DNA of 64,000 nt from Candidatus Kapaibacterium sp. (GCA_025055035.1 JANWZB010000001.1:4785-68784); one strand, 5' to 3'; shown: positions 39,673-63,899, numbered from the stretch's first letter. Made by a program: numbers and translations. Notes: generated by a model from the sequence alone, not told the origin.

Positions 39673-40557
39673 TTAGGCTTGTTGTGTCAGAAGCCGTTCA
39701 ATCATCGTCTTTAGTCCTTCAACTTTCCTCAGAATAGGGCGCAATGTTTGAGGGTTTTGATGCTTGAGCATCGTTTGAAGCTCACTAATATATCGGTTTG
39801 CTTTTTCTATCACAGCAGTGTCTTTCTTTTTCGCTATTTGTATAGCGTTTTTTGAGGAAACATTTTTTAGTGCTGTTTTGTTCCCAAATCCCTCTTCCTG
39901 CTGCAGCTTTTGCTGTAGTTCTTTGCGATATTTTGCCAACTGCTTTTGCACTGCCGAGACGTTTTGTCCTGTGTCCTGAGCGATTTTTTGAGCAGTAAGG
40001 CGTTGCACAGAAGTGCTTTCAGAAAGTAAAACGGAAGATTCCGTTTTACTTAAACTGCTTGTATCGTGCGCTGATTTTTTCGACCATTTCAATCCTCCAC
40101 CACGCGTTTCTTGGCGAATCAAGACGTCGAAATCTGGGTAGAGTTTCTTGTACAAACTGATCCACTCTGCTGTAGAAAATTGTCGGCGGTATAGATTATC
40201 CTTGATGATAAATTCGCGTTCTGCTGCTTCTGTGAGCGTATCGAGGACATACTGCACAGGCACAGACTGCAATCCTAGCTCCAATGCAACCTGCAAGCGG
40301 TTGTGCCCAGCAAGCAACACATCATCTTTCTTTGCCAGCAATGGAACAATAATCCCACGCTCTCGTATATCGTCCCGCAGCTTACTAAAATAATCTTCGC
40401 TTTCCTCTCTGAAAAAATGCCTATTCAGAGGATTTATCTTCAGCTGCTGAGGAGCAATATACTGCACGTCCGACAGCCGCACACCTTGAAGGTCAGCTCG
40501 TTTTGCTTGCACCCACGCAAGAGGGTTATTGTGCAGCTTAGGCTTCTTGGGATTCAT
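39673..40557 (-). CDS. parB: ParB-like partition protein (ParB/Srx nuclease-fold N-domain, HTH, K/Q-rich C-terminus)
   Basis: ParB N-domain IIVPLLAKKDDVLLAGHNRLQVALELGL, with GHNRLQ in place of the canonical GERRxRA CTP-binding motif. Putative HTH LTAQKIAQDTGQNVSAVQ. Directly downstream of parA. Confidence 0.7.
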   Translation of the reverse strand: MNPKKPKLHNNPLAWVQAKRADLQGVRLSDVQYIAPQQLKINPLNRHFFREESEDYFSKLRDDIRERGIIVPLLAKKDDVLLAGHNRLQVALELGLQSVPVQYVLDTLTEAAEREFIIKDNLYRRQFSTAEWISLYKKLYPDFDVLIRQETRGGGLKWSKKSAHDTSSLSKTESSVLLSESTSVQRLTAQKIAQDTGQNVSAVQKQLAKYRKELQQKLQQEEGFGNKTALKNVSSKNAIQIAKKKDTAVIEKANRYISELQTMLKHQNPQTLRPILRKVEGLKTMIERLLTQQA

Positions 40558-40592
40558 AAGTATTGAAGAGCAATCTCTCGGAAAGAATTACG

Positions 40593-41348
40593 CTAGAGTA
40601 TCCGTTGGACAATTGTTTGTGCAATCTCGCTATATTGTTCAGCTGCTTTGCTTGTAGGCTTATACTCAAAAATGCTTCTTCCTGCAGAAGCAGCTTCGGC
40701 GAGAGCAATAACTTCGGAAATATGCGTCGGAAATAACTCATGAGGGAACTGAGTTTCGAGTGCTTGCAGCGCTTCGCAGTGCATACCCTTCCTACGGTCG
40801 AACATTGTAGCAATCACTCCAGAAACGGCAAGCTTTGGATTTGTGCGTTTTTGCACAATACCAATGATTTCATACAGCTTTGCGAGACCTTGTAATGCAA
40901 AAAACTCCGTTTGCACAACAATACACACATCGGTCGAAGCAGTAAATGCATTAACTGTTAATAAGCCTAGGCTTGGTGGTGTATCTATAAGAATAGCATC
41001 ATACCCTGATACATGCTCGAGCGCCTCTCTCAGGAGAAATTCTCTTCCTGTGACGCTTTGCAACTCTGCTTCACTATTTGTTACATCGAGCGACGACGGC
41101 ACCAAATGCAGCATTGGGGAAAGCTGTGTCGTGGCCTCAGCTATTGATGCCGTAGCCCGAAGCACTTCGTATATCGTATTTTCTGGTCGTTCATATACAC
41201 CAAAATGCGCAGTAAGATTCGTCTGTGGATCGGTGTCAACGAGCAGGGTGCGCTTATTATAATGATGAGCAAGAGCATATCCAACATTTGCGACAGTCGT
41301 TGTCTTGCCAACTCCTCCTTTGTGATTTGCAAAGGTGATAATTTTCAT
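40593..41348 (-). CDS. parA: ParA/Soj-family partition ATPase
   Basis: Deviant Walker A KGGVGKTTT and DTDPQ. Confidence 0.88.
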   Translation of the reverse strand: MKIITFANHKGGVGKTTTVANVGYALAHHYNKRTLLVDTDPQTNLTAHFGVYERPENTIYEVLRATASIAEATTQLSPMLHLVPSSLDVTNSEAELQSVTGREFLLREALEHVSGYDAILIDTPPSLGLLTVNAFTASTDVCIVVQTEFFALQGLAKLYEIIGIVQKRTNPKLAVSGVIATMFDRRKGMHCEALQALETQFPHELFPTHISEVIALAEAASAGRSIFEYKPTSKAAEQYSEIAQTIVQRIL

Positions 41349-41482
41349 GCACAAAACACTTTATGAAACAATTTTATGTAGTGCGCAAATTACAAAAAAT
41401 CTTGCGAAGCATTGGCATATCTTAGCTTCGCCATCATAGAAAATTTTGTTTGAACTAGTTTTTCCTCCTATCTTCGCTGTGC

Positions 41483-41502
41483 TTGTACTGTATTGTACTG
41501 TA
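41483..41502. repeat. tandem 10-bp direct repeat (TTGTACTGTA x2) in the parA / aminotransferase divergent promoter region
   Basis: Exact tandem duplication seen in the sequence. Candidate ParB/ParA operator or centromere-like half-sites. Confidence 0.3.
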
Positions 41503-41524
41503 GATATCCTTCACACATCTATAC

Positions 41525-42724
41525 TTGGTTACAAGTATGTTATCATGCCAGCGGCACTTATTTAGCTTACCCGACAGTGTTCACTATCTCAACTGTGCAT
41601 TTATGTCTCCTCTTTTGAAACGTGTTGAAGAGGCTGGATATCATGGAATTTCGAAGAAACGCCTACCCCATTGCATTAAACAAGAAGATTTTTTTGGACT
41701 CCCTGCTACAGCACGAGCACTCTTTGCTAAGCTTATCCACGCATCAAGTGCTGATACTGTTACACTGCTTCCGTCTGTCTCTTACGGCATGGCTATTGTT
41801 GCAAAGAATCTTCCGGTGCACAAAGGTCAGAATATTGTTGCCGTTGCGGAAGAATTTCCAAGCAACATTTACGCATGGCGTCATCATTGTGCACAAGGCA
41901 TGGAACTGCGTCTTATTACTCCGCCATCCATACAGGATTGTTATTCCAGCGCACATACACGCGCTGAGCTATGGAACACAAGAATACTCAACGCAATAGA
42001 CACTAGCACGGCTCTTGTTGTTGTGTGTCCGTTGCATTGGGCAGATGGCACGCTCTTCGACCTTGTGCGCATTGGTAGTGCAGCACGAAGCGCCGGAGCA
42101 CTGTTTGTTGTGGATGGCACTCAAGCACTTGGAGCAATGCCATTTGATGTTCAACAGGTTCAGCCCGACGCTCTCATTGCAGCGTCGTACAAGTGTATGA
42201 TGGGTGCGTATTCCATAGGCTGTGCATATTGGGGAGAGCGACTTGCACACGCAACTCCCCTTGAAGAAACATGGGTAGGTCGTCTGGGAAGTGAAGATTT
42301 TCGCAATCTTACTGCTTATGAGGAAGAGTATCAGCCAGGTATGAATAGGTTGAACATGGGAGAACAGAGTAACTTTGTTCTCATTCCTATGCTTATTGCT
42401 GCTCTTGAGCAAGTTCTTGAATGGACGCCTACGTCTGTTCAAGAGTACTGCTCAGTGCTCACTGAACCTCTTGTGGACTTTTGTACAGAGTACAAGCTAT
42501 GGATAGAACATCACAGCTGGCGGGCACATCATCTATTTGGTATTCGCTTACCTGAGCATATAGATATTGCTACTGTTCAATCATCTCTTGCCCGGCATAA
42601 CGTTTATATCTCATTGCGAGGTGATTCTTTGCGCATATCCCCCCACGTGTATAATACACCGGAAGATATTCAAGCGCTCATACAAGCATTATACGAAGCA
42701 CTGTCATCACACTCATACAAGTAA
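41525..42724 (+). CDS. class V aminotransferase-fold PLP-dependent enzyme (cysteine desulfurase / isopenicillin-N-epimerase-like)
   Basis: YLNCAFMSP N-terminal motif and a candidate PLP-lysine SYKCMMG. Confidence 0.7.
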   Translation: MVTSMLSCQRHLFSLPDSVHYLNCAFMSPLLKRVEEAGYHGISKKRLPHCIKQEDFFGLPATARALFAKLIHASSADTVTLLPSVSYGMAIVAKNLPVHKGQNIVAVAEEFPSNIYAWRHHCAQGMELRLITPPSIQDCYSSAHTRAELWNTRILNAIDTSTALVVVCPLHWADGTLFDLVRIGSAARSAGALFVVDGTQALGAMPFDVQQVQPDALIAASYKCMMGAYSIGCAYWGERLAHATPLEETWVGRLGSEDFRNLTAYEEEYQPGMNRLNMGEQSNFVLIPMLIAALEQVLEWTPTSVQEYCSVLTEPLVDFCTEYKLWIEHHSWRAHHLFGIRLPEHIDIATVQSSLARHNVYISLRGDSLRISPHVYNTPEDIQALIQALYEALSSHSYK

Positions 42725-42799
42725 AAAGGAACGTTCCGTTTTACTTGCCTTGATAGCACAAATTCGTGATTAGAACACTTCTTCTTGAACTTTTGTACT

Positions 42800-43594
42800 A
42801 TGATTGCTCTCGACTGCACAGGAAAAAGAGCCCTGGTGTGCGGTAGTACACAGGGAATTGGTAAAGCCATTGCTCTACGCTTAGCCGAAGCTGGGAGCTC
42901 CGTTACGCTTGCTGCTCGCAACGAGCATGCACTTCAAGAAGTCGCCGTTAGCCTTCCTATTTTTGACCGGACGCAACAGCATGACTATATCGTTGCAGAC
43001 TTTTCTGATGCCGCTGCTCTTAGAATGGCTGTAGCTCGATACCTTGAGCATCACTCACCATTTCACATTCTTATCAACAATACCGGCGGACCTCCTCCAG
43101 GTGCAATTAGTCAAGCAGATTCTTCTGCATTTCTTGCTGCGCTCTCTCAGCATTTATTGTGCAATCATCATCTTGTTCAGCTTCTTCTTCCTGGTATGAA
43201 AGAAGCGCAGTATGGCCGCATCATCAATATTATTTCCACCTCTGTAAAGCAGCCCATTCCCAATCTAGGTGTTTCAAATACTACACGTGGTGCTGTAGCA
43301 AGCTGGGCAAAAACTCTTTCATTCGAACTTGCAGAATTCGGCATTACAGTGAACAATATTTTACCTGGATATATCACCACAGCACGCCTCGATGCTGTAA
43401 TTCACAGCATGGCACAGGCTCAGTCCTTGTCAGCAGAGGAAGCTGCTCGACGTATGAAAGAAAGCATCCCTGCAGGACGATTCGGTACACCCGAAGAAGT
43501 TGCAAATCTTGCGGTATTTTTGGCATCACCACTTGCTTCGTACATCAACGGAACAAGCATTCCTGTCGACGGAGGCAGAACAACAGCGTTCTAG
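42800..43594 (+). CDS. SDR-family oxidoreductase
   Basis: Rossmann motif VCGSTQGIGKAIA, catalytic motif (S...YxxxK region), NNAG-like INNTGG. Confidence 0.8.
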   Translation: MIALDCTGKRALVCGSTQGIGKAIALRLAEAGSSVTLAARNEHALQEVAVSLPIFDRTQQHDYIVADFSDAAALRMAVARYLEHHSPFHILINNTGGPPPGAISQADSSAFLAALSQHLLCNHHLVQLLLPGMKEAQYGRIINIISTSVKQPIPNLGVSNTTRGAVASWAKTLSFELAEFGITVNNILPGYITTARLDAVIHSMAQAQSLSAEEAARRMKESIPAGRFGTPEEVANLAVFLASPLASYINGTSIPVDGGRTTAF

Positions 43595-43649
43595 CACACC
43601 CATAACATTCTGTACTGCTTTACCGTCTGCGCATCTTGGATCACTAGGT

Positions 43650-45515
43650 CTACCGCACAATGAGTACAGGGATATTCAGCTCGTAGCGTACGGGCGAAAT
43701 CGTCTTCCCCATGAGCATTCCCAGAAGTCCACGATGTCCATGACCACCCATGACTAGTAGTTCTATCTGGTGCTGCTGTGCAAGGCGAACAATTGCCTTC
43801 GGCACGTTGCCAAATCCAAGTTCACAATAGACTTCGATACCTTCTTTAGATAAAGCATCCGCAACACGCCGCAAATATATATCATCTTCTCGTGCCTCTG
43901 CATCAAATGTTGCCCCCCCATACACGACCCCACCAGCACCCTCTACAACATGAAAAAGATATAACTCAGCATGATGCTGCTTTGCAAGCATCACTGCTTC
44001 ACTGAGCACTTTTTTATCTTTGTCGGAGAATGCAATTGTAACACCAATTTTCTTGTATGATCGTGCTTCAAGCTCTAGACGAGCACCTTCTTCGGGAGTT
44101 GTAAAGACTTTAGGACGCTGTCTGCCACGTGCTGTTCTATCCAGAAAAGGTTTGATAGTAATGTATGCAAGAAGCCCTATCAACACGCTACTCCCAAGCA
44201 GGATAGTTGTTTTTACTAGCCACGATGACGACACTGTAAGCACTGCAGACACCTGCTCCACAACAAGCTGAATATTTAGCGTAATAATTATTGAAGCCAC
44301 AATCCACGCTAGCACTGCAACACACGACCTATTGACAAACTCCCCCATGAGCCGACGGTCTGAGGTAAAATGAATAAGTGGAACAATTGCAAAAGGTAGC
44401 TGCAAACTCAAAATAACTTGGCTAAGAATTAACAACTGGTATGTCCCTGATTCTCCAGCAGTGAGTAATACCCATACCGCTGGCACAATAGCAACCATGC
44501 GCGTTATAAGCCTGCGTAAAAACGGACGTATTCTAAAGTGCAAAAACCCTTCCATCACAATTTGCCCAGCTAGTGTTCCTGTGAGCGTTGAAGATTGACC
44601 CGCAGCCAACAATGCAATGGCAAACAACGTCCCCGCAAGCGTTGTTCCCAGCAAAGGAGAAATAAGCTCATGTGCTTGCTGCAGTTCAGTAACAACAATG
44701 TTGTTCTTGTGAAACGTTGCCGCTGCTAGCACAAGAATTGCAGCATTAACAAAAAATGCCGCGTTCAGCGCAACTACCGAGTCGATTAGGTTATACTTGG
44801 CTGCTGTACGCTTTCCCTGTACAGTAGGCTCAAAGGCTCTTGTTTGAACGAGCGCAGAATGCAGATACAGATTGTGTGGCATGACGGTTGCACCAATGAT
44901 GCCTATTGCTACAAATAATGCTCCTTCAGGCATGTTTGGAAGAAATCCTCGCATCACCTCGTGCGGTTGAGGCTTCGATAGTACAAGCTCTATCACAAAG
45001 CATCCCCCAATCATAGCAACAATAGCAACAATAAATGCCTCAAACTTCCGCACACCAAGGTTCTGAATGAGCAAGAGTAACAACGTATCAACCCCCGCAA
45101 TAATGACTCCCCAAAGTACCGGAATACCAAACAGCAAATTGATGCCTATGGCTGTTCCGAGAACCTCTGCTAGGTCGCAGGCAGCTATAGCTACTTCCGC
45201 TAGAACCCACAGCATATAGGCAATAGGGGTTGGGTAATTATCACGGCAAGCTTGTGCCAGATCACGTCCTGTAACAATCCCTAACCGAGCAGACAGCGTC
45301 TGAAGCAACACCGCCATCATATTCGACATCAATAGCACCCAGACAAGTGCATAACCGAAGCGTGCTCCACCTTCAATATCTGTTGCCCAGTTGCCGGGAT
45401 CCATGTACCCAACACTAACAAGATATGCCGGACCAAAAAATGCAAATATACGTTTCCATCCGCGCTGAGGAAGAGCTACCGTATGTGCTGGTTGTGGTAG
45501 TGATGATGCTTTCAT
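43650..45515 (-). CDS. mntH: NRAMP-family divalent metal (Mn2+/Fe2+) transporter fused to a C-terminal universal stress protein (UspA) domain
   Basis: NRAMP signature GPAYLVSVGYMDPGNWATDIEGG and 11-12 TM helices. C-terminal 150 aa with UspA motifs (LVMGGHGHRGL...NIPVLIVR). Confidence 0.85.
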   Translation of the reverse strand: MKASSLPQPAHTVALPQRGWKRIFAFFGPAYLVSVGYMDPGNWATDIEGGARFGYALVWVLLMSNMMAVLLQTLSARLGIVTGRDLAQACRDNYPTPIAYMLWVLAEVAIAACDLAEVLGTAIGINLLFGIPVLWGVIIAGVDTLLLLLIQNLGVRKFEAFIVAIVAMIGGCFVIELVLSKPQPHEVMRGFLPNMPEGALFVAIGIIGATVMPHNLYLHSALVQTRAFEPTVQGKRTAAKYNLIDSVVALNAAFFVNAAILVLAAATFHKNNIVVTELQQAHELISPLLGTTLAGTLFAIALLAAGQSSTLTGTLAGQIVMEGFLHFRIRPFLRRLITRMVAIVPAVWVLLTAGESGTYQLLILSQVILSLQLPFAIVPLIHFTSDRRLMGEFVNRSCVAVLAWIVASIIITLNIQLVVEQVSAVLTVSSSWLVKTTILLGSSVLIGLLAYITIKPFLDRTARGRQRPKVFTTPEEGARLELEARSYKKIGVTIAFSDKDKKVLSEAVMLAKQHHAELYLFHVVEGAGGVVYGGATFDAEAREDDIYLRRVADALSKEGIEVYCELGFGNVPKAIVRLAQQHQIELLVMGGHGHRGLLGMLMGKTISPVRYELNIPVLIVR

Positions 45516-45530
45516 GCGTACAGTATAAAT

Positions 45531-45544
45531 TTAGCTCAAGCTAA
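45531..45544. promoter_or_regulatory. 6-2-6 palindrome TTAGCTcaAGCTAA 16 nt upstream of the mntH start codon (candidate metalloregulator operator)
   Basis: Perfect dyad seen in sequence. Position relative to the start codon suggests an operator. No family assignment possible. Confidence 0.25.
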
Positions 45545-45799
45545 AAAAAATCCCTATGCTTGTCAAGCAAAAAGAATGAAGAACATAGCGTAGAAGATGG
45601 GGTATTATAGTAACAAAGCCGAAAGGTGAATAATTGAGCACCACAACAACAAATTTTTCTACAGAAATCCCCAAAAAGCGCATAAATTTACGAATCATTG
45701 CGTTTTCACTAGTTTTTAGACAGCTTATCCATCTCTCACGGTATTGTAGCTCTGTTACTAACTCAATGCTATAACCGTACTTATCGCTACGCCTAATCA

Positions 45800-46810: not shown

Positions 46811-46838
46811 CCCCAAATTTATATTGCCTGTATACAGT

Positions 46839-47288
46839 ATGCTCACTATCCTTGCTCGGCGTGTAGCCCCAGAGTTTGATGATATTCCGCTGCCAGAATA
46901 TGCTACAAACGGTTCTGCCGGAGCAGATATTCGTGCAGCACTTTCTCACGACGTTCTCATTCCTCCATCTTCCATAGCAACAATACCGACAGGGATTGCT
47001 CTTGAAATACCACCGGGCTATGAGATACAAGTCCGCTCACGCAGTGGCTTGGCAGCACGATACGGAATTTTTTGTTTGAATTCTCCCGGAACAATAGACA
47101 GCGACTTCCGTGGGGAAGTACAGGTCATTCTTGCCAATTTTGGCAAAGAGCCATTTATAGTACGACGAGGCGACCGCATTGCTCAGCTTGTTGTTGCGCG
47201 TTATGAGCACGTACAGTGGCAGGAATCTTCGCATTTAAGCTGTACTGAACGAGGACAGAGCGGATTTGGTAGCACAGGAATACAGTAA
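46839..47288 (+). CDS. dut: dUTP diphosphatase
   Basis: 149 aa with dUTPase motifs AGADIRA, RSGLA, IDSDFRGE, GDRIAQLV and a C-terminal GFGSTG. Confidence 0.9.
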   Translation: MLTILARRVAPEFDDIPLPEYATNGSAGADIRAALSHDVLIPPSSIATIPTGIALEIPPGYEIQVRSRSGLAARYGIFCLNSPGTIDSDFRGEVQVILANFGKEPFIVRRGDRIAQLVVARYEHVQWQESSHLSCTERGQSGFGSTGIQ

Positions 47289-47305
47289 CGACAACACAAA
47301 ATCCT

Positions 47306-47803
47306 ATGAAAGCCCGAAGAGGCACAGCAATTGTTGAAACAGAGCAAGGCATTTTACTCAATGCTATTGCAGGAAATGTATTTCTGCTTCCGGGAGGACG
47401 CGCCACACTTGGCGAGAGCTACATGTGTGCTGCTATCCGTGAATTGCATGAGGAAACAGGGCTACAAGCATACTACGCAATGTACTTATTTTCTTTCCAA
47501 TCCAGAAAAAACAACCATCACGTCTTTTTGATGCAAGCAATTGGGCTTGCTCGCCCTATGAGCGAAATTGAGCGCATCGGATACTATCGTGATGGTCGTA
47601 TCACTAATATCTTCGACAGAAAGGGAATACAGTACCGCGACCTCGACCTTACCCATGTTTCGGATAGTACACGCGATATCCTACGCCTTTATGCACAGTA
47701 TAAACATAACCACGCAGAGTTTTTTCACTTCCTTGCTGATTACACCCATGCTGCTGAGCAGCAATATATGACGCAACCATTTCTTTTGGGCGAACACCTT
47801 TGA
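47306..47803 (+). CDS. Nudix hydrolase
   Basis: Nudix box GGRATLGESYMCAAIRELHEETGL (GX5EX7REUXEEXGU). Confidence 0.8.
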   Translation: MKARRGTAIVETEQGILLNAIAGNVFLLPGGRATLGESYMCAAIRELHEETGLQAYYAMYLFSFQSRKNNHHVFLMQAIGLARPMSEIERIGYYRDGRITNIFDRKGIQYRDLDLTHVSDSTRDILRLYAQYKHNHAEFFHFLADYTHAAEQQYMTQPFLLGEHL

Positions 47804-47823
47804 TACAATCCTCGAGGCTAGTA

Positions 47824-48114: not shown

Positions 48115-48146
48115 GAGGATTGTTAGCTTTTCGCGCGCTACATACT

Positions 48147-48695
48147 CTATTTTAGTTCCTGCAACGCCCTTTCCTCGATAGGAATTCGTATAGCAAGCAA
48201 GAGCACAGCATTGACAAGACTCGCAACGATAGCTGTTTTCCATGCAAACACTATCATCGGTACAGCAGCAATCTCTATAGCAACTGCTAGGTAGTTTGGA
48301 TGTTTCCAATATCTGTATGGACCGGCACACACACGCTCTTCCCCCGGCACAACAATAACACGGGTATTCCATGCGTATCCTAGAGATACGATCGCCCAGT
48401 AGCGTAGTACTTGTGCAGCAAGAAAGAGCAGACCGCATATATACGAGCATATGGATTCTAGAGTGTAGCTATGCTTCCACAGCTCAGAGTCATGTACACT
48501 ATACCACCCTTCCACACACCACGCCACTATCCACGCACTATGTAGCAGTACGAATGCTCGATAGTGTTCTCTTCCAAACTCCTTGCCGCCACGTGATAGG
48601 GCATGTGCCCGGTTGCGTTCCGCTAGGTACAGCTCGGAAAGGCGCTGTATGACAATGACACTAGCAAGGCACAACAGTATAGTCAGCATTGTCAT
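48147..48695 (-). CDS. ICMT/PEMT-family membrane methyltransferase (BpsB-like)
   Basis: C-terminal motifs GPYRYWKHPNYL and RIPIEERAL typical of the isoprenylcysteine carboxyl methyltransferase family. Start trimmed to MTMLTIL so it begins 10 nt after the PKS stop. Confidence 0.75.
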   Translation of the reverse strand: MTMLTILLCLASVIVIQRLSELYLAERNRAHALSRGGKEFGREHYRAFVLLHSAWIVAWCVEGWYSVHDSELWKHSYTLESICSYICGLLFLAAQVLRYWAIVSLGYAWNTRVIVVPGEERVCAGPYRYWKHPNYLAVAIEIAAVPMIVFAWKTAIVASLVNAVLLLAIRIPIEERALQELK

Positions 48696-48705
48696 GATAT
48701 CAATA

Positions 48706-49767
48706 CTAGGTGCAAAAGAGCAGAAGTTCTGCACTAAAGCCCGGACCGAGAGCTATCATCATACCAAGCTCGTGAGGTGCAGGGGCAGACCGCATCAATT
48801 CCTGTAACGCAAAAAGCACAGAAACGCTCGACATATTGCCATAGTTCTGCAACACGTGGTATGCTGTGCAGAGATCTTGTTTAGTAAGTTTCAAGCTGTC
48901 TTGGTACGCTTGTAGTACTTTTGCCCCTCCAGCATGAAGAACAAAATGGCGGATTTCTTCTGTACAGATACCCCACGCTGCACAAGCTTCTGCAACTATA
49001 CCGGGAAGATGCTCCGTAATGAGTGTAGGAATATCACGCGCAAAGCGCACCTTGAGACCTGTCTCAATAATGTCCCAGCCCATGATATCCTCAGAGTCAT
49101 CAAATATGTAGCTGTACGATGCAAGGATACGCATTCCTAGTTCCTTGTCTTCTTGTGGCTTCTTTAACACAAGAGCAGCTGCACCGTCAGCAAACAAACT
49201 CGACGCAATAATGTTGGATTTCGAAATATCGTTGCGCTGAAACGTTAGGCTGCATAATTCAACAGCAGTACATAAGCCGTATGAGCCATCCGGCATTGCC
49301 GATAGAAGCTCTGCAGCTCTAGCTAATCCAGCTACTCCACCAGCACAGCCTAGACCCCACACCGGTACTCGCTTGACTGTTCGAGGCAAGCATAGTGCTT
49401 GTATCAGCTTAGCATCCAGACTCGGTGTGGCAATGCCTGTTGTTGATACTGCCACAACCATGCTAATATCCTCGCGTTGTATACCAGCATTCTGTATTGC
49501 GCTATTCGAAGCGTTAACAAGGAGCTTTATGGCAGTTTCCACAAAAAGATTGCTAGATTCTACAAAGCTTCGCTGCTGTTCAAACCAAGACAGCGGCTGC
49601 GAAAAGTACCGGCTTGTAATCTGTGTATTCTCAAATACAGGCATAAGCCGCTGCAAGCCTTGATACTCGCCTGAAAAGAGCCTGTATACAAGCTCCCTAA
49701 CATCGTGCTGCGAGACTTTATACGGAGGAAGAGCAGTGGCGATACTCTGTACAAGAATAGGAATCAT
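48706..49767 (-). CDS. type III polyketide synthase (chalcone/stilbene synthase superfamily, BpsA/RppA-like)
   Basis: Catalytic Cys in GLGCAGGVAGL, His in HAGGAKVL, Asn in GNMSSVSV, and a C-terminal GPGFS motif. Confidence 0.88.
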   Translation of the reverse strand: MIPILVQSIATALPPYKVSQHDVRELVYRLFSGEYQGLQRLMPVFENTQITSRYFSQPLSWFEQQRSFVESSNLFVETAIKLLVNASNSAIQNAGIQREDISMVVAVSTTGIATPSLDAKLIQALCLPRTVKRVPVWGLGCAGGVAGLARAAELLSAMPDGSYGLCTAVELCSLTFQRNDISKSNIIASSLFADGAAALVLKKPQEDKELGMRILASYSYIFDDSEDIMGWDIIETGLKVRFARDIPTLITEHLPGIVAEACAAWGICTEEIRHFVLHAGGAKVLQAYQDSLKLTKQDLCTAYHVLQNYGNMSSVSVLFALQELMRSAPAPHELGMMIALGPGFSAELLLFCT

Positions 49768-49799
49768 ATGCGCACGCTCACAACAGCCCTACGATAGCA

Positions 49800-50600
49800 C
49801 TATACATCATTTTCTGGAATTTGGCAAGTGTTACGAAAGGCAAGCTGCGAGACTGTTTTGCGTTGATTGCTCGTCCAATCAATGCGCGGGCGTTCGCGCT
49901 GCTCTGGGAGATAACCAAGACGATATATCGCCATAAGCTCTAAATCATCTGGAACGCAAAGCAACATTTTCAGTTCCTCCCATGCCTCAGGAATTTCCAT
50001 CGGTGTAGAAATAAATTGCATGCCCATACCCAGCTCACAGGTTGTTAGCCAGATATTTTCTATCGCCATTCCCAACGATAAAATACAGTACAACGCAGAG
50101 AGCTCTCCGGGGATGTATTCGTCCTTCTTCAGCAGTGCAGCCAACAGCAGAGGGCTAGCAGCTACAAGCTTTGTATTATCTGCCCCTAGTATCTTCGGTA
50201 CTCCCACACTCCGCATAATGCTCAATGCTGTGTCAGTAAACATATGCTTTATGAATGGACGCAGAGCAGGAGGAAGTTGGTCTATGAAAATGCCATCGCG
50301 CCGTTCTTCCATTTCTTGATGAGTAAATCGGAAGTACTTCTTGTAGCGAGCAAAGAACTTCCCTTCGTCGATAAGCTGTGTCATTGTGCGACCAGCAATA
50401 TCGGAGATACGGAAGCGAACTGCCTCGTCGTCAATCAGCACAAAACGCCACGGCTGAGAGTTAAAGTGACTTGGAGCACGGCTTGCTGCTTCAATAAGCA
50501 AGTGCTGATGCTCACGTGACACAGGGTCGGGCTTGAAGTACCCGTTTGTTGTGCGGCGTGTGCGAATAGCATCGAGAAGCTCCATACCATCCATTGGCAA
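49800..50600 (-). CDS. nitroreductase-superfamily flavoprotein
   Basis: [18 protein letters not shown] signature. 266 aa, larger than classical NfsB. First gene of the PKS cluster. Confidence 0.75.
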
Positions 50601-50716: not shown

Positions 50717-53272
50717 TTATGAGTACTGTGCTGCAACAACGGACTGCTTTGCTTTGCGTGCATCCGTAAACCGATTTGTTGTGTTAATAAGGCGCATTGC
50801 CAGAGTAAAGATGAGTTTTTTGGCAATGGTAGGATTATTGTGCACCAGTTCGTCGATAGTGCAGTCGTAGTGTGTAATAACAGAATCAGTTTTCGCGATA
50901 ATTGTCGCTGTGCGAGCTTCATTGGTAATTTCGCTCATTTCGCCGAAGATTGTCTCAGGGACACTAAATTCAGTAATTTTGACACCCTCCTTAAATACTT
51001 CCACAACGCCTGAATGCATGATAAAGAATCCCCGTCCCTTTTCTCCTTCCTTCATAATGATATCACCTTTCTTCGCATGGATGCGTTCTTCGCGGTACTG
51101 CCGTGCTGCCGAGGTAAGCAGCTCTGTCTTCTGCATCGAAGACGCTTGGCCTGAAAGCGTAGCTATACTCTTGTATTCATCGGGTACACGAGCAACATCT
51201 TCCAAAGCTGCAGAACGGTCTAACCGAAACCGTGCAACGAGCTTATTGAGTTGTTCTGTGATAGAAGCAAGGTGATTGATAGTTTGTGCAACGCGCTCAG
51301 TCTCTTGGGCAGATTGCGAGGCAGTCGAGGCAATATTTTCTACGCTTGTCAAGATATGAAGACTTGTCGCAGATTGCTCTTCTGTTGCCGAAGCGATTTG
51401 GCTAATGCGGTCAAGTACAGACTGCGAACTTTCGATAATCTCTCGGAGCGCTACCCCTGCCGAATCAGCAAGAGCAATGCCTTCTCTCACACGGTTGCTA
51501 CTAGCATACATTAGTGATGTCGCACTTTCAATATCCTTAAGGATTTGGTCAAGCATTGCGCTAATTTGCTTTGTTGCTGTTGATGTTTGCTCGGCAAGGC
51601 GTGCAATTTCATCAGCAACAACAGCAAACCCGCGCCCTTGTTCGCCAGCTCGTGCAGCTTCGATAGCAGCATTCAGTGCTAGAAGGTTCGTGCGTTTCGC
51701 AATAGCCTCGATAGTTTGAATAATCTTGCCTATATCTTTGCTCGATGTCCCAAGATTTTCGATGTTGATAGCAGAGCTTTTGACTACATCAGCGAGCGAG
51801 CGAATGTTTTCAACGGCTTGTGCCACTACAAAACCGCCTTCAGCAGCCACTTTGCTATTGTCAGCAGCAAATTTGGTTGTCTCGCTAGCATTGCGTGCAC
51901 TGTGTGTAATTGCCTTGTTCATTTCTTCGAGTGCAGTGTTCACCTCATCAGATTGTACCCATTGCTTCTGTGCCCAGAATACTAATGCTTCTTTCGACTC
52001 ATTAATTTGCTTTGCAACGCGGCGGGTAAGCTCCACTGCCTCGATAACTTCTATCATCATTCTGCGGATATTGCCCACAACTTCATTAAATCCAGCATAT
52101 AAGCGCCCAATGTCATCAGAGCTAGAAACCTGCAGTTGTACGGTCAAGTCGCCCTGAGCAAGAGCTTGCATCTCATGCAAAATCGTCGATACACTCGTAT
52201 TCAAATATGCGCTCTGCGATTCAAGCTGATGCAACGTCTTATTGAGTTCTTCCTGTTGACGAAGCAAATTATTCTGCTGCGCAATGATCTTGGTATTGGA
52301 TTCGCGCAGCGTTGTTGCCATGCTATTGAATGCATGGGCAAGTGCCCCAATTTCGTCGTTGGAGCGTACGTGAACAATCTGTGTTTGTCCGCTTGCTAGC
52401 GCTTCTGTAGCATGTTTCAGCTCGAGCACAGGCCGCACAAGACTTCGCGCAAGGAAAAATGCTATGGGTAGCCCTGTCAGAAAGGCAAGAGCAATAACGC
52501 TGTACATCAGGCGTTCTGATGTTGCTGCCACGACACTTTTTTCCTCAATCATGTGTTTGCTTGTGCCGAGAGCATCCGACTCAATAGTGTAAAGCCTCAG
52601 TGATAGGGTATCAAGCCTTTTGAACACTGCTGAGAGTTTTTTGAATGTTGTGCGGTAATGGTCTATGAGCGATGCGGCACTTGCTTTTGTTGCAATAGGC
52701 AAAGATGATGTAGCCACACCTGCTTCGAGCACTGCTATGTCTTCATCAAATTCTTTAATATGCTTTTCCAGCTTGCGCATAATAAAGTTTTTCTCATCAC
52801 GGCGCACCTGAAGCAGCATAAGATTCAACTCGGTAAGTCGAATCTCTTCAAACAAATCCTCCAAATCGTGTGCACTTTTGCGGAATGCTCCTTCAATACC
52901 ACTATTTTCCGTTAAGCCACGCTCTTGCATTGTTTCAGCAAACATGTGCCATAGCTTTTGATACTGTTCAAGCACAGATTGCAGTGCTATTCGCTCGTGT
53001 TCTACAATCATCTCGGACAGCACAGCATTTCCTTGCTGCAAAAGAGTGTTATTCTGGTGTATGTAGCTTTCTTTACGTGTCGTCGTAAAATCAACGCGAT
53101 TGGAGCGTAGGTTCAGAATAGTATTCGCTAGTGTTTGAATCCTATTCAGTTCGTCCATAAGCCGCGCCTGCCTATATGCAAAGAATGCTACAATCGCCGT
53201 GAATGCACCCATTATACCGGCAAGACCAAAAATCTTCACAAATAGCGACACAGAGCGTATCTTGTCCAGCAT
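50717..53272 (-). CDS. methyl-accepting chemotaxis protein with two HAMP-like segments and a C-terminal cyclic-nucleotide-binding (CAP effector) domain
   Basis: Two TM helices flanking a helical sensor region. HAMP ([14 protein letters not shown]). MCP signalling hairpin ([34 protein letters not shown]). C-terminal cNMP-binding domain ([24 protein letters not shown]...FGEMS...RTATIIA). Confidence 0.85.
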
Positions 53273-58113: not shown

Positions 58114-58157
58114 GATGCGCGTATCTCATTGTTTCCTTCGTGCATATTCTTGCGCTT

Positions 58158-59669: not shown

Positions 59670-59759
59670 GTGTAGCACTCCTGCACCTAATATCCTACAA
59701 GACTGCGTTTGCAAAAGGCTGCACACACCATTCGGACTACTCGCAAGCAGCAAGATGTG

Positions 59760-60749
59760 TCAGCTTAAAGGCGCTACATGTCGTGCTTGCGGCTTCATAA
59801 GAGCAGCACGTACCCATTTGCCCTTCTCATGTGCCATATTTCGCACCGCAAGGCGTTCTTTGTTGCAAGGACCGTCGCCATTAATAACTCGCATGAACTC
59901 TGCCCAGTCAGGCTCAGTATACTCCCAAGTATTTGTTTCGGGGTTCTTCCGTAAGGCTGGGTCAGGAATTGTTAGACCAAGCTCCCAGATCTTTGGCACG
60001 TACATGTTGAGAAACTGCTGGCGCATTTCATCATTGCTTGCAAGTTTAATTTTCCATTTCATCAGCTTCTCTGTGTGCACGGATATTTTGTCTGGGGGTC
60101 CGAAGAAATGCATCACAGGTGTCCACCAGCGATTCAGAGCATCTTGGAGCATTTGGCGCTGTTTTTTTGTACCTGTGGCAAGCGTTACGGCATTTTCGTA
60201 TCCATACTTCAGGTGAAATGATTCTTCTTGGCAAATTCGCTCGAGTGCTCGACAATACGGACCATAGCTGCCCTTCGAGTTTGTTACTTGGTTGATAATC
60301 GCACCAGCATCAATCAGCCATGCAATAACGGCAGAGTCTGCCCACGTAGGAGCAGGGTAGTTGAATACGTTTGAGTATTTGGATTTTCCAGAAATAAGAT
60401 CGTTCAGCATTGCTTCGCGTGATTTACCAAGCGTTTCAGCGGCATTGTACAGAAGTTGAGCATGTCCGACTTCGTCCTGAACCTTCGCGAGCAATGCAAG
60501 CTTGCGTTTGAATCCTGGAGCACGCGTAATCCACGTTCCTTCAGGTAGAGCTCCAATGATTTCTGAGTGTGCGTGTTGCTCTATCATCCGAATGAGCTGG
60601 CGTCGGTACTCACGTGGCATCCAGTCGTGGGGTTCTATCTTTTCGCCACGCTCAATCTTTGCCTCAAACTCAGCAAGCTTTTCAGGATCTTCACACATTA
60701 CTTCTGGCACTGCATTGGGCATGTCGCCTACATAAGCATTTCCGTACAT
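59760..60749 (-). CDS. paaA: ring-1,2-phenylacetyl-CoA epoxidase subunit A (PaaA-like ferritin-fold di-iron oxygenase)
   Basis: Strong similarity to PaaA throughout ([59 protein letters not shown]). No paaBCDE genes in the window. Confidence 0.75.
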
Positions 60750-60870
60750 ATTCGTGTTTGGATTGTTGTGGTGAACAATACGCTATTGCAAGAACACACG
60801 TGCTTGATGGCATATATGCATACTATTGTAATACAAAATTAACAAAAAAAAGTTCACCTGCCAGTAGTGC

Positions 60871-60896
60871 TTTTCGCCATGAGCGAAAATTTTTGT
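60871..60896. terminator. terminator-like hairpin TTTTCGC-catga-GCGAAAA followed by TTTTTG (plus-strand sense) between two minus-strand genes
   Basis: Perfect 7-bp stem with a 5-nt loop and a U-tract on the plus strand. An A8 run 22 nt upstream could serve the minus strand. Confidence 0.35.
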
Positions 60897-60934
60897 GGTA
60901 CTATAATTCATGTAGCAAATGTTCAACAACAGCT

Positions 60935-61552
60935 CTATTTCAGTCTTCGCGTTGGGCTTTTTACATAGCGCAAGCGGTAGTATCCTAGCGGTGTAAACAT
61001 TGTTGGGTTCGCAACGGCGTCTTTATAAAGATTGACAAATTGCACCTTGACGTAATTTCCAGAGCGTGTCCTTAGAACAAGTGTTTTCTGCGGATTTGGG
61101 AGAATTGTGCGCTGCGAAGAGTTGTAGGTAAACATTCCTCGCCCTGATAAGTCTGTCGAAACAACGCGTCGCGTTACTGCTGTATCATCAGTTCGCAGTT
61201 GATCATCAGGTGGGGCGGTTGTTACAAGGTCAAACGTAGAATCAACAACAAGTCCAATAGTCTTACCACGAGGATTCACTGTGCCTGAGTTCAGCAAAAT
61301 ATCAACAGAACGTGAGCTTGCACTCAGAAACGGCAGTGAAATGTCCCATTCATCGGTACTAGCACGACTGACAGCCACAACCGTATCACGGTCGAAAGAA
61401 AAATATAAGACGGATAGACTATCTGGACGAAGATTTGACACGATACGAGACGTTAGTGTATCCGCAGCGCGGGGCGACGTGGTATCTGAATTGCAGGATG
61501 ACATACTCAGCATCACACAACATAACAACACGGCAATACTGTAGGTATTCAT
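60935..61552 (-). CDS. hypothetical lipoprotein
   Basis: Lipoprotein signal MNTYSIAVLLCCVMLSMSSC. Beta-rich mature part. No family assignable. Confidence 0.4.
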   Translation of the reverse strand: MNTYSIAVLLCCVMLSMSSCNSDTTSPRAADTLTSRIVSNLRPDSLSVLYFSFDRDTVVAVSRASTDEWDISLPFLSASSRSVDILLNSGTVNPRGKTIGLVVDSTFDLVTTAPPDDQLRTDDTAVTRRVVSTDLSGRGMFTYNSSQRTILPNPQKTLVLRTRSGNYVKVQFVNLYKDAVANPTMFTPLGYYRLRYVKSPTRRLK

Positions 61553-61707
61553 AAACGGCACCGAATGAGTACGACAACATTTACTTACTTGTAAAAACAC
61601 ACAAAATTACAAAGGCTTTATCTAATACGCAATCCTTTTTTACGGTATAATGCAGAATACGTGGAGTAGCAAAGTGCAGCTTTTTATAACAGAGTGACGA
61701 ACAGAAT

Positions 61708-62178
61708 TTATAGAGCGTGCAGGCGAAATTCCCTGCCGAAGCTTTTCAGTACAAATGTTGTATCGGTAATGCACTCGAAAAATTCTGCTAGAGCGAGATA
61801 TGATGCCAGCGTAAATCGTGCTTCAAAGGCGTGTCCTCCGCGCTCAAAAACCTTGACGTAAAGAATATTATTTTCACTCTGCCGAAGAGGATGCTCATTA
61901 TCAAGAGGAAGAAGAGTTCCATCATTGAGTGTCAAGGTGATGTTGGTATTCTCATCAGAATGAACAGCAATAACAGCAAAAGGAGCATCATCAACAACAA
62001 TGGGTACAGACTCAGCAGGTGTAATAAGAGCATATCCCTCATCGCACTTTTGTAGCGCGGTATAAAATAAGCGTACTAAGCCTGCACGTTGAATCGGCGT
62101 ATCGCCGTAGTACCATATTCCCTCAGTATCAATCCGCAAGACAGGATTATTGATATCTGATACCATGAGTATGTTCAA
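61708..62178 (-). CDS. DUF1285-family protein
   Basis: IWYYGDTPIQRAGLVRLFYTALQ...GYALITPAESVPIVVDDAPF resembles the conserved DUF1285 core as I recall it. Confidence 0.5.
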   Translation of the reverse strand: MNILMVSDINNPVLRIDTEGIWYYGDTPIQRAGLVRLFYTALQKCDEGYALITPAESVPIVVDDAPFAVIAVHSDENTNITLTLNDGTLLPLDNEHPLRQSENNILYVKVFERGGHAFEARFTLASYLALAEFFECITDTTFVLKSFGREFRLHAL

Positions 62179-62235
62179 TAGTCATAGCATAGTATGCGCA
62201 TATTTGTATTTATTTAGTGCGGTCATCTAATCTTG

Positions 62236-63231
62236 CTAAGGTTTATTTGCTTGAATAAGCTTATCAAGCAGAATATTACGGTTCTGACACAGGAGCATGT
62301 AAATTGTATTATTGTATTCTCCTGCTTGCTCATACGTGTTGTGCTGACGAATAAAGTCTGGCAGCATATCGTAAGCTTCTTTCATAATTGCCTGCTGCTG
62401 CTCTAGCCCTAACTGTGAGAAGACAGTGTCGTAATCTTCAGGTGTGGTGGGTGTTGTACTCAAGTCTATTGGCTCCACTGCATTTCTAAACGGAAGAGAA
62501 AGTTCCGTTTTTCGGTAAATACAAAACTTTATTCCATCGATCTTGCGTTGCACACGATGATAGCGCACTGCTACAAATAAGTCGGAGAGCTCGTTAATTT
62601 CATTCACTGCTTTTTTGATAACTTTTTCGTTGAAGCGAGAGAAGACAAGGTACTCATCCTCATCAACACCCATAAGCTCGCGAAATTCGCTAATGGAGAT
62701 TTGTGGGGTCTCGCCGTAGGAGCGCTCAAAATCAAAATAGTCAAGACATAGCTCGTACAGAGCAAGGGCGTGCTTCGACTGGAACTTGTTTTGTAGCGAC
62801 AGACTAATCCGAGCATACATGCGAGGGTTGCGCAAGCGCTCGCGCAGAAAGGGACTAAAAGCATATGTTAAAATGCCTTGCTTAATTACAGCACCTGCAA
62901 GTAATGGGAAAACACCCCACTCACTTTTGTCTTTCCGCAAAATATTCCACCGTACAGCTGTAGTAGAAAGCTTTTCCAGCGCTTCCTTGAGATACGCATC
63001 ATCGTTGCTTTGGTAGTCAAGCATTTCAACGAGATCGCGAACACGAATTTGGAAGCGGTCAGTATGAGCAAGGTCATCATACGCACGAGCAAGCAGAATA
63101 TTCCACGCTCGGCGCTGAAGTAAGGAGATGGTATTTGTAATCTGTACAGCAGAACTATGCTTAATGACTTCTTTCTTACGTTTAGAAAGCCGAATTGGTG
63201 CACTAGATAAGATCGGTGTTACCGCTTCCAT
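62236..63231 (-). CDS. plasmid-type replication initiator, Rep_3 (RepA/RepB) family
   Basis: Winged-helix pattern typical of iteron-binding Rep_3 proteins (NTISLLQRRAWNILLARAYD...MYARISLSLQNKFQSKHALALYELCLDYF...ISISEFRELMGVDEDEY...NEKVIKKAVNEINELSDL). Start trimmed to MEAVTP; the ORF track extends to 63378. The iteron array lies immediately 5' of the gene. Confidence 0.75.
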   Translation of the reverse strand: MEAVTPILSSAPIRLSKRKKEVIKHSSAVQITNTISLLQRRAWNILLARAYDDLAHTDRFQIRVRDLVEMLDYQSNDDAYLKEALEKLSTTAVRWNILRKDKSEWGVFPLLAGAVIKQGILTYAFSPFLRERLRNPRMYARISLSLQNKFQSKHALALYELCLDYFDFERSYGETPQISISEFRELMGVDEDEYLVFSRFNEKVIKKAVNEINELSDLFVAVRYHRVQRKIDGIKFCIYRKTELSLPFRNAVEPIDLSTTPTTPEDYDTVFSQLGLEQQQAIMKEAYDMLPDFIRQHNTYEQAGEYNNTIYMLLCQNRNILLDKLIQANKP

Positions 63232-63350
63232 AATACCATTAGCTTCTGAAAGATTACAACACACCACACAACTTGATCTACTGATAGCGTTGAAATCTAC
63301 ACAATCCCTTTGCGAGAGCAAAGCAAAATGATACAACACTTTCATAAAGT

Positions 63351-63535
63351 TTCCTGTAAACGGGGAGCTTACCAGCATGCTGGATGATGTCTGATGTTAT
63401 TTCGGAGACTGTTCACGCATCCTGTAAATGGGGATGCTCATCCAGAAAATATCCTGTAAATGGGGAGGTTTCAAACACTTCTTCTCGGCTATCCTGTAAA
63501 TGGGGAGGTTTCTATCCTGTAAATGGGGAGAGTTG
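63351..63535. repeat. iteron cluster A: one degenerate plus four spaced copies of the 22-bp iteron ATCCTGTAAATGGGGAG(A/G)(G/T)TTC
   Basis: Copies at 63351-63370 (degenerate, TTCCTGTAAACGGGGAGCTT), 63419-63440, 63451-63472, 63491-63512 and 63514-63535. Confidence 0.85.
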
Positions 63536-63541
63536 CAAAAG

Positions 63542-63566
63542 TTTTCCACAAATAGAGTGTGGATTA
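63542..63566. promoter_or_regulatory. two inverted DnaA-box-like sequences (TTTTCCACA and TGTGGATTA) followed by an AT-rich stretch
   Basis: Each matches the TTATNCACA consensus at 8 of 9 positions. They sit between the two iteron clusters, as in many iteron-plasmid origins. Confidence 0.45.
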
Positions 63567-63618
63567 TATCATACTGAGACGCTATGTGGGAGTATATATA
63601 CAAAATTTTCGCACAGTA

Positions 63619-63760
63619 CTCCTATAAATGGGGAGGTTTCTATCCTGTAAATGGGGAGAGTTCATCCTGTAAATGGGGAGAGTTCATCCTGTAAATGGGG
63701 AGAGTTCATCCTGTAAATGGGGAGAGTTCATCCTGTAAATGGGGAGAGTTCATCCTGTAA
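63619..63760. repeat. iteron cluster B: one variant copy plus five perfect head-to-tail 22-bp iterons (ATCCTGTAAATGGGGAGAGTTC) and a truncated sixth
   Basis: Copies at 63619-63640, 63642-63663, 63664-63685, 63686-63707, 63708-63729, 63730-63751, and a partial one at 63752-63760. Exact 22-bp periodicity (two helical turns). Confidence 0.9.
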
Positions 63761-63791
63761 TCTCAATATTTTCAATAACTTACAGGAATAT

Positions 63792-63827
63792 AAAACTCTT
63801 AAAACTTCTAAAACTTTTAAAACTCTT
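63792..63827. repeat. four tandem AT-rich 9-mers (AAAACTYYT), candidate DNA-unwinding element
   Basis: aaaactctt, aaaacttct, aaaactttt, aaaactctt, directly flanking the iteron array. Confidence 0.55.
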
Positions 63828-63830
63828 AAA

Positions 63831-63862
63831 ATAGAGCTAGTAATAAATAGAGCTAGTAATAA
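63831..63862. repeat. 2 x 16-bp direct repeat ATAGAGCTAGTAATAA
   Basis: Exact tandem duplication seen in the sequence. Confidence 0.6.
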
Positions 63863-63869
63863 ATTAAGA

Positions 63870-63899
63870 GAGCACAGTAATCTTTTAACTACTGTGCTC
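63870..63899. promoter_or_regulatory. perfect 10-bp inverted repeat GAGCACAGTA-(10 nt)-TACTGTGCTC, hairpin or dimeric-protein binding site at the origin edge
   Basis: Exact dyad symmetry. No U-tract follows, so a classic intrinsic terminator is unlikely. Confidence 0.5.

Follow-up and report, generated by a model that had tools for sequence, protein, structure and literature searches.

Iteron replicons of the Rep_3 family (PF01051), which replicate by the theta mode, are known from pPS10 with its RepA protein, from plasmids of Acinetobacter and Pseudomonas, and from chromids of Pseudoalteromonas. Their initiators contain two winged-helix domains (WH1 and WH2), and their origins combine tandem iterons of 22 bp, additional iterons across the promoter of rep, DnaA boxes, and an adjoining AT-rich block. 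A similar set of parts was identified, together with a parA-parB operon, in a stretch of 64,000 nucleotides from Candidatus Kapaibacterium sp. (JANWZB010000001.1:4785-68784), which is referred to here as the window (Table 1). Judged from its sequence, the window is chromosome-like DNA of Candidatus Kapabacteria with a complete, vertically inherited maintenance core of the plasmid type. The leading reading, to which we assign a probability of about one half, is that the window forms the origin-proximal part of a secondary replicon (chromid) carrying core genes of the lineage. The assignment of the parts, namely a Rep_3/iteron origin (oriV), ParA, a ParB with a GHNR motif, and a palindromic candidate parS, is much more secure than the assignment of the replicon.

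Chromids were reportedly defined by Harrison et al. in 2010, and chromosome 2 of Vibrio, the second chromosome of Prevotella, and replicons of Deinococcus and Leptospira (CII) are said to be examples. For the Kapabacteria/Ignavibacteria, a literature search found no described plasmid or chromid.

The material of this study consists of contigs from metagenome-assembled genomes (MAGs), and the related loci that bear Rep are all drafts. The window was found to be 100% identical to, and colinear with, NCBI contig JAVQWN010000003.1 (68,524 bp; MAG GCA_033578975.1), which begins within the iteron array (around window position 63740) and extends 4.8 kb past window position 1. The window and this extension together gave 68.8 kb of DNA that was examined for gene content. 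Several Logan contigs from run SRR15826902 are likewise identical to the window, and the Logan and NCBI contigs follow it without rearrangement from Rep through two-component genes to parAB and onward. An exact-DNA scan of the GTDB species genomes with the window gave no match. The GroEL and ParB of the window carry the labels Candidatus Kapabacteria and Bacteroidota bacterium, and for both proteins the longest recorded contig has 92,069 bp. Within the window, the GC content is uniform, at 0.42-0.49.

The Rep_3 initiator and the iteron origin

Both domains of the initiator encoded by rep score above their Pfam cut-offs, WH1 with 73.3 bits for PF01051 (cut-off 22.4) and WH2 with 59.1 bits for PF21205 (cut-off 21.1). 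The true start of rep is position 63231, giving the N-terminus MEAVTPIL, and the proteins of the relatives likewise begin with MEAVTPI. In a plasmid collection, annotated initiators of Pseudomonas and Dinoroseobacter plasmids were identified that are 44% identical to this Rep. Eleven copies of the iteron TCCTGTAAATGGGGA are present at positions 63352-63745, six of them in 22-bp tandem, and each of the two DnaA-box-like 9-mers between the iteron blocks matches TTATCCACA in eight of nine positions. The repeats of the origin far exceed chance. The Rep/iteron origin that a preliminary description of this DNA had proposed is thus present, with an intact Rep_3 protein and a full iteron set.

The Rep_3 winged-helix initiator would bind the 11 iterons, and the six tandem copies would nucleate opening at the adjoining AT-rich repeat block, a candidate DNA-unwinding element. 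The spaced iterons over the rep promoter would provide autorepression and a copy control of the handcuffing type, and host DnaA would probably be recruited through the inverted pair of DnaA-box-like sequences. If the origin fires, replication may be unidirectional. Both the binding of these proteins to the DNA and the firing of the origin are what we infer from the arrangement of the parts.

Rep homologues with 61-81% identity were identified in MAGs of "Ignavibacteria"/Kapabacteria, always inside contigs of chromosomal appearance. The sizes of these contigs are 97.9 and 121.6 kb for the P0004 lineage, and 140.6, 227.7, and 239.9 kb for further ones, with Rep located at about 98 kb on the 227.7-kb contig and at about 190 kb on the 239.9-kb contig. 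A metagenome scan with the Rep profile returned mostly short contigs. The architecture of the origin is shared by at least ten related lineages: upstream of rep, ten loci have distal 9-mers, then a tandem iteron block, DnaA boxes, and spaced iterons that reach rep, with an identical or almost identical iteron core motif CCTGTAAATGGGGA. The number of iterons ranges from 11 to 18 among the lineages, and 9-mers of the AAGAGTTTT type lie distal to the iterons in all relatives. Perfect DnaA boxes were found in L011, at the same position as the pair in the window, and in L123, L014, and L015.

In six relatives, rep is full length in every copy, with a nonsynonymous divergence (pN) of 0.13-0.25 against a saturated synonymous divergence (pS) of 0.78-0.83. 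By these values, Rep is under purifying selection and functional, and no relic, which implies that the origin is maintained by selection. The five closest lineages have kept the gene order Rep-DUF1285-HmuY-PaaA-OmpA/FecR-kinase, with paaB, paaC, and paaD across the iterons from rep.

Some neighbours of the origin deserve a separate mention. The paaA-like and paaB/C/D-like oxygenase genes flank the Rep/iteron origin divergently in close relatives (window 59760-60749; L008 4412-8176). In the relative L040, which lacks Rep, paa-like genes (477-1475 and 19028-20801) flank the parAB segment with unchanged orientation. Compared to the Rep-bearing relatives, this arrangement points to an inversion that had the origin as one of its ends. 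The DUF1285 gene (window 61708-62166; L122 15648-16145) is located directly downstream of rep in the window and in five relatives, and on the 227.7-kb contig it is found instead 5 kb from parB. We know of no link between DUF1285 and replication. A lipoprotein of about 255 amino acids (lipobox CKKEQE; no Pfam match) abuts the AT-rich end of oriV in two relatives (L008 8202-8966 and L123 7050-7829). These two lipoproteins share 35% identity, L011 has an unrelated gene in the corresponding place, and a domain search of the lipoproteins found no replication-related domain.

ParA, the GHNR ParB, and the palindrome within parB

ParA is a Soj-like ATPase with the deviant Walker A motif KGGxGK[ST], present as HKGGVGKTT, and its best matches in the PDB are ParAs of the Soj type (E=1e-45 to 1e-42). 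Its identity to plasmid ParAs (those of Bacteroidota plasmids among them) and to chromosomal Sojs is in the same range, about 42-47%, so that ParA does not discriminate between the replicon types.

For ParB, the Pfam match to ParB_N is sub-threshold (21.3 bits against a cut-off of 26.3), and a sequence search of the PDB identified Spo0J (1vz0, E=1.5e-7). In the AlphaFold model, the predicted local distance difference test score (pLDDT) is about 90 over residues 30-120 and 190-220, and below 50 in the linker. Foldseek aligned this model to the N-domain of pNOB8 ParB, to Caulobacter ParB(-parS), to Noc, and to KorB over 180-213 columns, comprising the N-domain and the DNA-binding domain. The ParB fold is confirmed by these matches, and a parA-parB operon, which had been described as lying within 25 kb of the origin, is present with parA at a distance of 22 kb.

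The preliminary description had also pointed to the sequence GHNRLQ in place of the GERRxRA motif and to a K/Q-rich C-terminus in ParB. The C-terminal third is indeed K/Q-rich, and in the alignment to Spo0J the residues AGHNRLQVAL (83-92) stand opposite AGERRYRAAL or AGERRFRAAK, which confirms the loss of the motif. Among 23 homologues, the segments L-A-G-H-N-R-L, P-V-Q-Y, and D-N-L-x-R-R are invariant, as is a helix-turn-helix (HTH) with the pattern LTAxKIAxDTGQxxSAVQKQLxKYR. An exhaustive profile search (E<=1e-30) identified a family of 148 clusters at 50% identity. At 90% identity, the family comprises at least 101 clusters. GHNRL is present in 182 of 237 family sequences, nearly all others have GH.R, and none has GERR.

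For Caulobacter ParB, it was shown that the Q58A and E102A variants bind cytidine triphosphate (CTP) without hydrolysing it, and that the R103A variant does not bind CTP (PMC8367383). Mapped on this protein, Q58, E102, and R103 are replaced by N45, H85, and N86 in the GHNR family, and G101, R104, N136, and R139 are kept. The conservation of these four residues implies that the nucleotide pocket probably persists in the GHNR ParB. Canonical CTP hydrolysis, and perhaps CTP binding as well, is doubtful on the basis of the replaced residues, and hypothetically the protein could act independently of CTP.

Inside parB, a perfect palindrome of 28 bp was identified, and a second copy with one mismatch lies 2.7 kb from it at the end of the aminotransferase gene, which is divergent from parA. 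The 20-bp core of the palindrome occurs twice in the window, against an expectation of 0.01. At the protein level, the palindrome codes within the disordered, indel-rich linker of ParB. A palindrome of 24-28 bp is present at the same site of parB in L040, L122, L123, and L124, of which the ParBs are only 54-61% identical, and in L122 the outermost positions are altered symmetrically (G>A, C>T), so that the dyad is preserved. Across four parB genes, the codons of the arms are identical in six of six cases, compared to 10 of 111 for the codons of invariant amino acids elsewhere. Since codon identity is confined to the arms of the palindrome, selection on the intragenic palindrome at the DNA level is shown by this codon comparison.

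In Bacillus subtilis, spo0J carries a parS site inside the gene, and by analogy the palindrome is a strong candidate for the nucleation site (parS) of the GHNR ParB. A candidate for the parS-like palindromes, for which the preliminary description had suggested a search, is thus present in two copies, the one inside parB being conserved in four relatives, and no canonical parS (TGTTNCACGTGAAACA) was found in the window. The GHNR ParB would nucleate via its HTH on the palindrome in its own gene and on the copy 2.7 kb away, and the Soj-like ParA would work with this GERR-less ParB in segregation.

A tandem repeat of 2 x 10 bp in the parA promoter, also described earlier, is present as well. Taken alone it is weak, with 10 near-matches of TTGTACTGTA in the window against 4.5 expected, and its sequence is not conserved in the relatives, which have other short direct repeats upstream of parA, each of a different sequence. 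The TTGTACTGTA repeat may be an operator. As the main centromere candidate it was rejected, having only two copies, no conservation, and unrelated repeats in its place in the relatives. One of these is an exact 31-bp tandem duplication (TTCTTATAGCCAATCCTGTAACCTTATAATA x2) upstream of parA in the Rep-less L040 (8960-9030), and in L121 two copies of TGTGCTAC are located at the equivalent place.

Linkage of Rep and ParB was seen in seven cases, in which a Rep cluster and a ParB cluster have longest contigs of equal size (121618, 227715, 48375, 33256, 21045, 20736, and 11993 bp). In the window, 22 kb separate the start of parA from the iterons, with parA on the side of rep. On the 227.7-kb contig, the distance is about 19 kb, and parA is located on the side opposite to that in the window. 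On the 12-kb contig L123, rep, the iterons, the lipoprotein gene, the aminotransferase gene, parA, and parB are contained within 6 kb, with a spacing of 2-3 kb between parAB and the origin. In all three measured loci, transcription of parAB points away from the iterons. The proximity of Rep and ParB survives heavy shuffling of the surrounding genes between lineages, which is expected if the centromere must stay near the origin that it serves. A symmetric inversion, considered for the location of parAB on opposite sides of the iterons at similar distance, was not adopted, being a single case with no backing from strand skew.

Table 1. Features identified in the window, with their position, strand, and the basis of assignment.
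Feature	Position	Strand	Basis
GC3 skew sign change, 55.6 kb from the iterons	7912..7945	.	independent of gene orientation on both sides
groES-groEL	13654..15670	+	Pfam Cpn10 and Cpn60; NCBIfam GroEL equivalog 889 bits (cut-off 582)
sbcC, sbcD, proA, proB	28792..36057	-	NCBIfam
ctaA (heme A synthase family)	37324..38316	-	Pfam COX15-CtaA 172 bits
parB-like: ParB/Srx N-domain (GHNR variant), HTH, disordered linker, C-terminal helices	39673..40557	-	
Candidate parS-1, perfect 28-bp palindrome AAGTAAAACGGAA-GA-TTCCGTTTTACTT inside parB (encodes SKTESSVLL)	40024..40051	.	
parA, Soj-like deviant Walker A partition ATPase	40593..41348/41354	-	Pfam AAA_31 E=1e-51
2 x 10 bp tandem repeat TTGTACTGTA, divergent promoter region of parA and aminotransferase gene, ~135 bp upstream of parA	41483..41502	.	
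Candidate parS-2, palindrome copy with 1 mismatch, overlapping the aminotransferase stop codon	42719..42746	.	
dut (dUTP diphosphatase)	46839..47288	+	NCBIfam equivalog 184 bits (cut-off 103)
rep, Rep_3-family replication initiator, 331 amino acids	62236..63231	-	Pfam Rep3_N and Rep3_C
Five spaced iterons (TCCTGTAAA[T/C]GGGGA), rep promoter region	63352..63529	.	motif and layout shared upstream of rep in ten related loci
Inverted pair of DnaA-box-like 9-mers (TTTTCCACA / TGTGGATTA) between the iteron blocks	63542..63566	.	
Six tandem iterons, 22-23 bp period	63620..63745	.	
AT-rich repeat block: 4 x TAAAACTYTT at 9-bp spacing, then 2 x 16 bp	63791..63860	.	
Perfect hairpin with 10-bp stem (GAGCACAGTA ... 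TACTGTGCTC), outer edge of the origin/AT-rich block	63870..63899	.	

Core genes, strand skew, and the type of the replicon

All of the housekeeping genes that had been described for this DNA (groESL, proBA, sbcDC, dut, and ctaA) were identified in the window. The closest homologues of GroEL are GroELs of Kapabacteria, with 90-94% identity, and proB and proA exceed the curated NCBIfam cut-offs (327 against 186, and 533 against 289). On these matches, GroESL, dut, and proBA are judged to be genuine orthologues of the lineage at the equivalog level. SbcC scores under its NCBIfam cut-off, and SbcD is recognized by the subfamily model TIGR00619 only (191 against 77.65), remaining under the equivalog cut-off (297 against 450). 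When the longest contigs of the GroEL clusters were compared to those of the Rep and ParB clusters, none was in common except the organism's own 92-kb contig, so that this comparison is uninformative. The gene repertoire consists mostly of sensors, TonB/SusCD transporters, and accessory metabolism. Across the 64 kb of the window, no tRNA, Rfam match, ribosomal-protein gene, or replication gene was found, nor was a tRNA found in the related loci. Among the genes identified in the 68.8 kb by Pfam and NCBIfam scans and precomputed Pfam tables, which leave a few short open reading frames without a match, there is no integrase, transposase, relaxase, toxin-antitoxin, or att-like feature.

Between about 59.7 and 7.9 kb of the window, a distance of 52 kb, the GC skew at third codon positions (GC3 skew) keeps one sign, whichever strand a gene is on. 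Beyond the sign change at 7.9 kb, the flipped skew lasts for 12.7 kb, to the end of the NCBI contig (L004, past window position 1). This flip may be a terminus, an inversion breakpoint, or the border of acquired DNA, and a replicon size of about 110 kb, calculated from it, was not relied on, since an inversion breakpoint would explain the flip equally well. No dif-like site was found. In the relatives, the GC skew of the whole sequence over 10 kb on each side of rep is weak and not origin-like, and it told less than the GC3 skew.

The reading of the window as part of a chromid is in line with the complete plasmid-type origin under selection, with the proximity of a non-canonical partition system to this origin, with the absence of mobile-element genes among those identified in the 68.8 kb, with the prevalence of sensors, transporters, and accessory metabolism, and with the lack of tRNA, ribosomal-protein, and replication genes in the 64 kb. 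In addition, Melioribacter roseus, a cultured relative, was shown to have a dnaA-dnaN oriC on its only chromosome (PMC3534657), so that the Rep/iteron origin is not the normal chromosomal origin of the group. An autonomous replicon would be in keeping with these points. Of the chromid hypothesis put forward in the preliminary description, the intact and selected plasmid-type core and its association with core genes of the lineage have stood; the separate replicon itself remains a proposal.

Several observations weigh against an autonomous replicon. In one relative, one and the same ParB (P0158) is present on 12 contigs, two of which exceed 1 Mb (the longest being 1,579,175 bp). The ParA and ParB of this relative are 74% and 61% identical to those of the window, and its palindrome is perfect, but no Rep is located within 10 kb of its parAB. 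For the best 120 Rep clusters, no contig longer than 227,715 bp is recorded, and the GHNR ParB family, which comprises 148 clusters at 50% identity, extends further than the close Rep family of about 25 clusters. ParA is no nearer to plasmid ParAs than to chromosomal Sojs. A closed Kapaibacteriales MAG consisting of a single 2.98-Mb contig has been reported for a different lineage with 39% GC (PMC12509668). Finally, in eight relatives the sign of the GC3 skew does not change across the iterons, so that the signature of a bidirectional origin is absent. The GC3 skew does not fit a bidirectional origin at the iterons. It is compatible with unidirectional firing and equally with passive replication, and it was not used as support for firing of the origin. 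In one report (PMC12053903), unidirectional replication is described for Pseudoalteromonas chromids of some species, and such a mode would fit the absent skew flip at the iterons.

These observations are the main reason to consider that the locus is part of the main chromosome. An ancestral Rep_3 plasmid or chromid would then have co-integrated with ParABS, or next to it, and its origin would be silent, auxiliary, or conditional, the DNA being replicated passively from oriC. ParAB-parS on contigs above 1 Mb without Rep, the wider distribution of ParB than of Rep, the lack of a GC3 skew flip at the iterons of eight relatives, the uniform skew over 52 kb of the window, the uniform GC content, and the presence of lineage-type GroESL, dut, and proBA would all be explained in this way. 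However, Rep, the 11-18 iterons, the DnaA boxes, and the AT-rich block have remained intact despite saturation of synonymous sites, which is hard to explain for an unused origin. Moreover, no integrase, att site, or transposase was found, the proximity of Rep and ParB was kept through extensive local rearrangement, ParB is not of the canonical GERR chromosomal type, and a skew sign change 55.6 kb from the iterons would be unexpected in the middle of a replichore. Co-integration into the main chromosome is a serious alternative, although a less probable one than the chromid. A further proposal is that, in this clade of Kapabacteria, the main chromosome is replicated principally from the Rep/iteron region, a plasmid-type initiator having replaced or overtaken oriC. 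It would account for the DnaA boxes within the origin, for the chromosomal appearance of Rep contigs of up to 240 kb, and for the finding that ParABS, normally origin-proximal, stays about 20 kb from the Rep/iteron locus, be it on one side or the other. Yet a nested or sister relative has ParABS on contigs of Mb size without a Rep of this family, a skew flip at the iterons is absent, the oriC of cultured Ignavibacteria is of the dnaA-dnaN type (PMC3534657), and informational core genes (ribosomal proteins, dnaA/dnaN, tRNAs) are missing near the locus, which makes this proposal quite improbable. A related and more far-reaching model, in which the Rep_3/iteron origin and its DnaA boxes would be the working origin of a chromosome-grade replicon of Mb scale, possibly the main chromosome, segregated by a GERR-less ParB that nucleates on the palindrome in its own gene without canonical CTP hydrolysis, is improbable too, if a shade less so.

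Since the source is a MAG, a plasmid fragment could have been joined chimerically to chromosomal DNA during assembly or binning, and the assemblies of this DNA do tend to break at the iteron array, where the NCBI contig starts (around 63740) and a Logan contig ends (63534). The independent Logan contigs of SRR15826902 and the NCBI contig are nevertheless identical and colinear with the window from Rep through parAB, and at least five further assemblies at the species level contain the Rep-DUF1285-HmuY-PaaA-OmpA/FecR-kinase junction, so that an artefact is very unlikely. Least likely of all is a decayed integrated element, for which the preliminary description had named a truncated rep and att sites as the marks. 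Beyond the location of the locus in chromosome-like DNA, nothing was found in its favour: every lineage has a full-length rep, subject to purifying selection, and intact iteron arrays, and neither an integrase nor att-like repeats were found. Even taken jointly, artefact and decay have a very small share of the probability, and a chromid that carries core genes of the lineage stays the leading interpretation of the window.

Further genes of the window and comparison to described systems

Apart from the maintenance core, the window contains several genes with unusual neighbourhoods or domain compositions. A type III polyketide synthase of the chalcone/stilbene synthase family adjoins an ICMT-type methyltransferase and a nitroreductase (48147-50600), and together these genes may serve the synthesis of lipids of the alkylresorcinol or pyrone type. 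A universal stress protein (Usp) domain forms the C-terminus of an Nramp metal transporter, as a fusion (43650-45515). A methyl-accepting chemotaxis-type protein of 851 amino acids (HAMP and MCPsignal domains) carries a C-terminal cyclic-nucleotide-binding domain (50717-53272), and after its gene come those for STAS and ABC-ATPase proteins and for two hybrid kinases. The genes for a molybdopterin subunit of the xanthine dehydrogenase family and for a [2Fe-2S] subunit adjoin a gene of the sulfate transporter family (2818-5773).

If the replicon is autonomous, it would be the first chromid-type secondary replicon known to us for the Kapabacteria/Ignavibacteria branch of the Fibrobacteres-Chlorobi-Bacteroidetes (FCB) group, conserved across many species and carrying groESL. 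Whatever the replicon type, the GHNR ParBs (about 150 clusters at 50% identity) lack three residues that are important for CTP binding or hydrolysis in model ParBs and keep the rest of the pocket, so that nature offers in them a way to test if the canonical CTP switch is required for ParB clamps. The conserved intragenic palindrome provides a ready centromere candidate in either case.

Compared to the chromosomal Soj/Spo0J-parS system, the module of the window is similar in its Soj-like ParA, in the succession of N-domain, HTH, and C-terminal region in ParB, and in the palindrome inside parB. It differs in the invariant GHNR in place of GERR, in the Asn in place of the Gln of box I, and in the sub-threshold ParB_N match, and its palindrome of 24-28 bp with the arm AAAACGGAA is unrelated to canonical parS. 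Within the plasmid collection, the nearest full-length relatives of ParB are those of Leptospira plasmids. The one encoded on NZ_CP092114 shares 31% identity over 271 aligned columns, contains the motifs GENR and DNLFRR, and is encoded in a parA-parB operon. To our knowledge, the Leptospira plasmid ParBs have not been characterized biochemically. The best structural match was the N-domain of pNOB8 ParB (PDB 5K5A/5K5D). The ParB of the window is distinguished from both the Leptospira and the pNOB8 proteins by the low identity and by a His in place of the Glu of the motif.

With Rep_3 iteron plasmids, the window shares the initiator type and the organization of the origin described above. Unlike these plasmids, its Rep is only 44% identical to any initiator in the plasmid collection, and the origin is surrounded by chromosome-like genes over at least 69-240 kb, without conjugation or mobilisation genes. 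As in chromids of the Harrison type, plasmid-type replication and partition genes are combined with core genes and a uniform composition, in this case on contigs only; unlike in these chromids, a related organism has the partition module on a contig of Mb scale without Rep.

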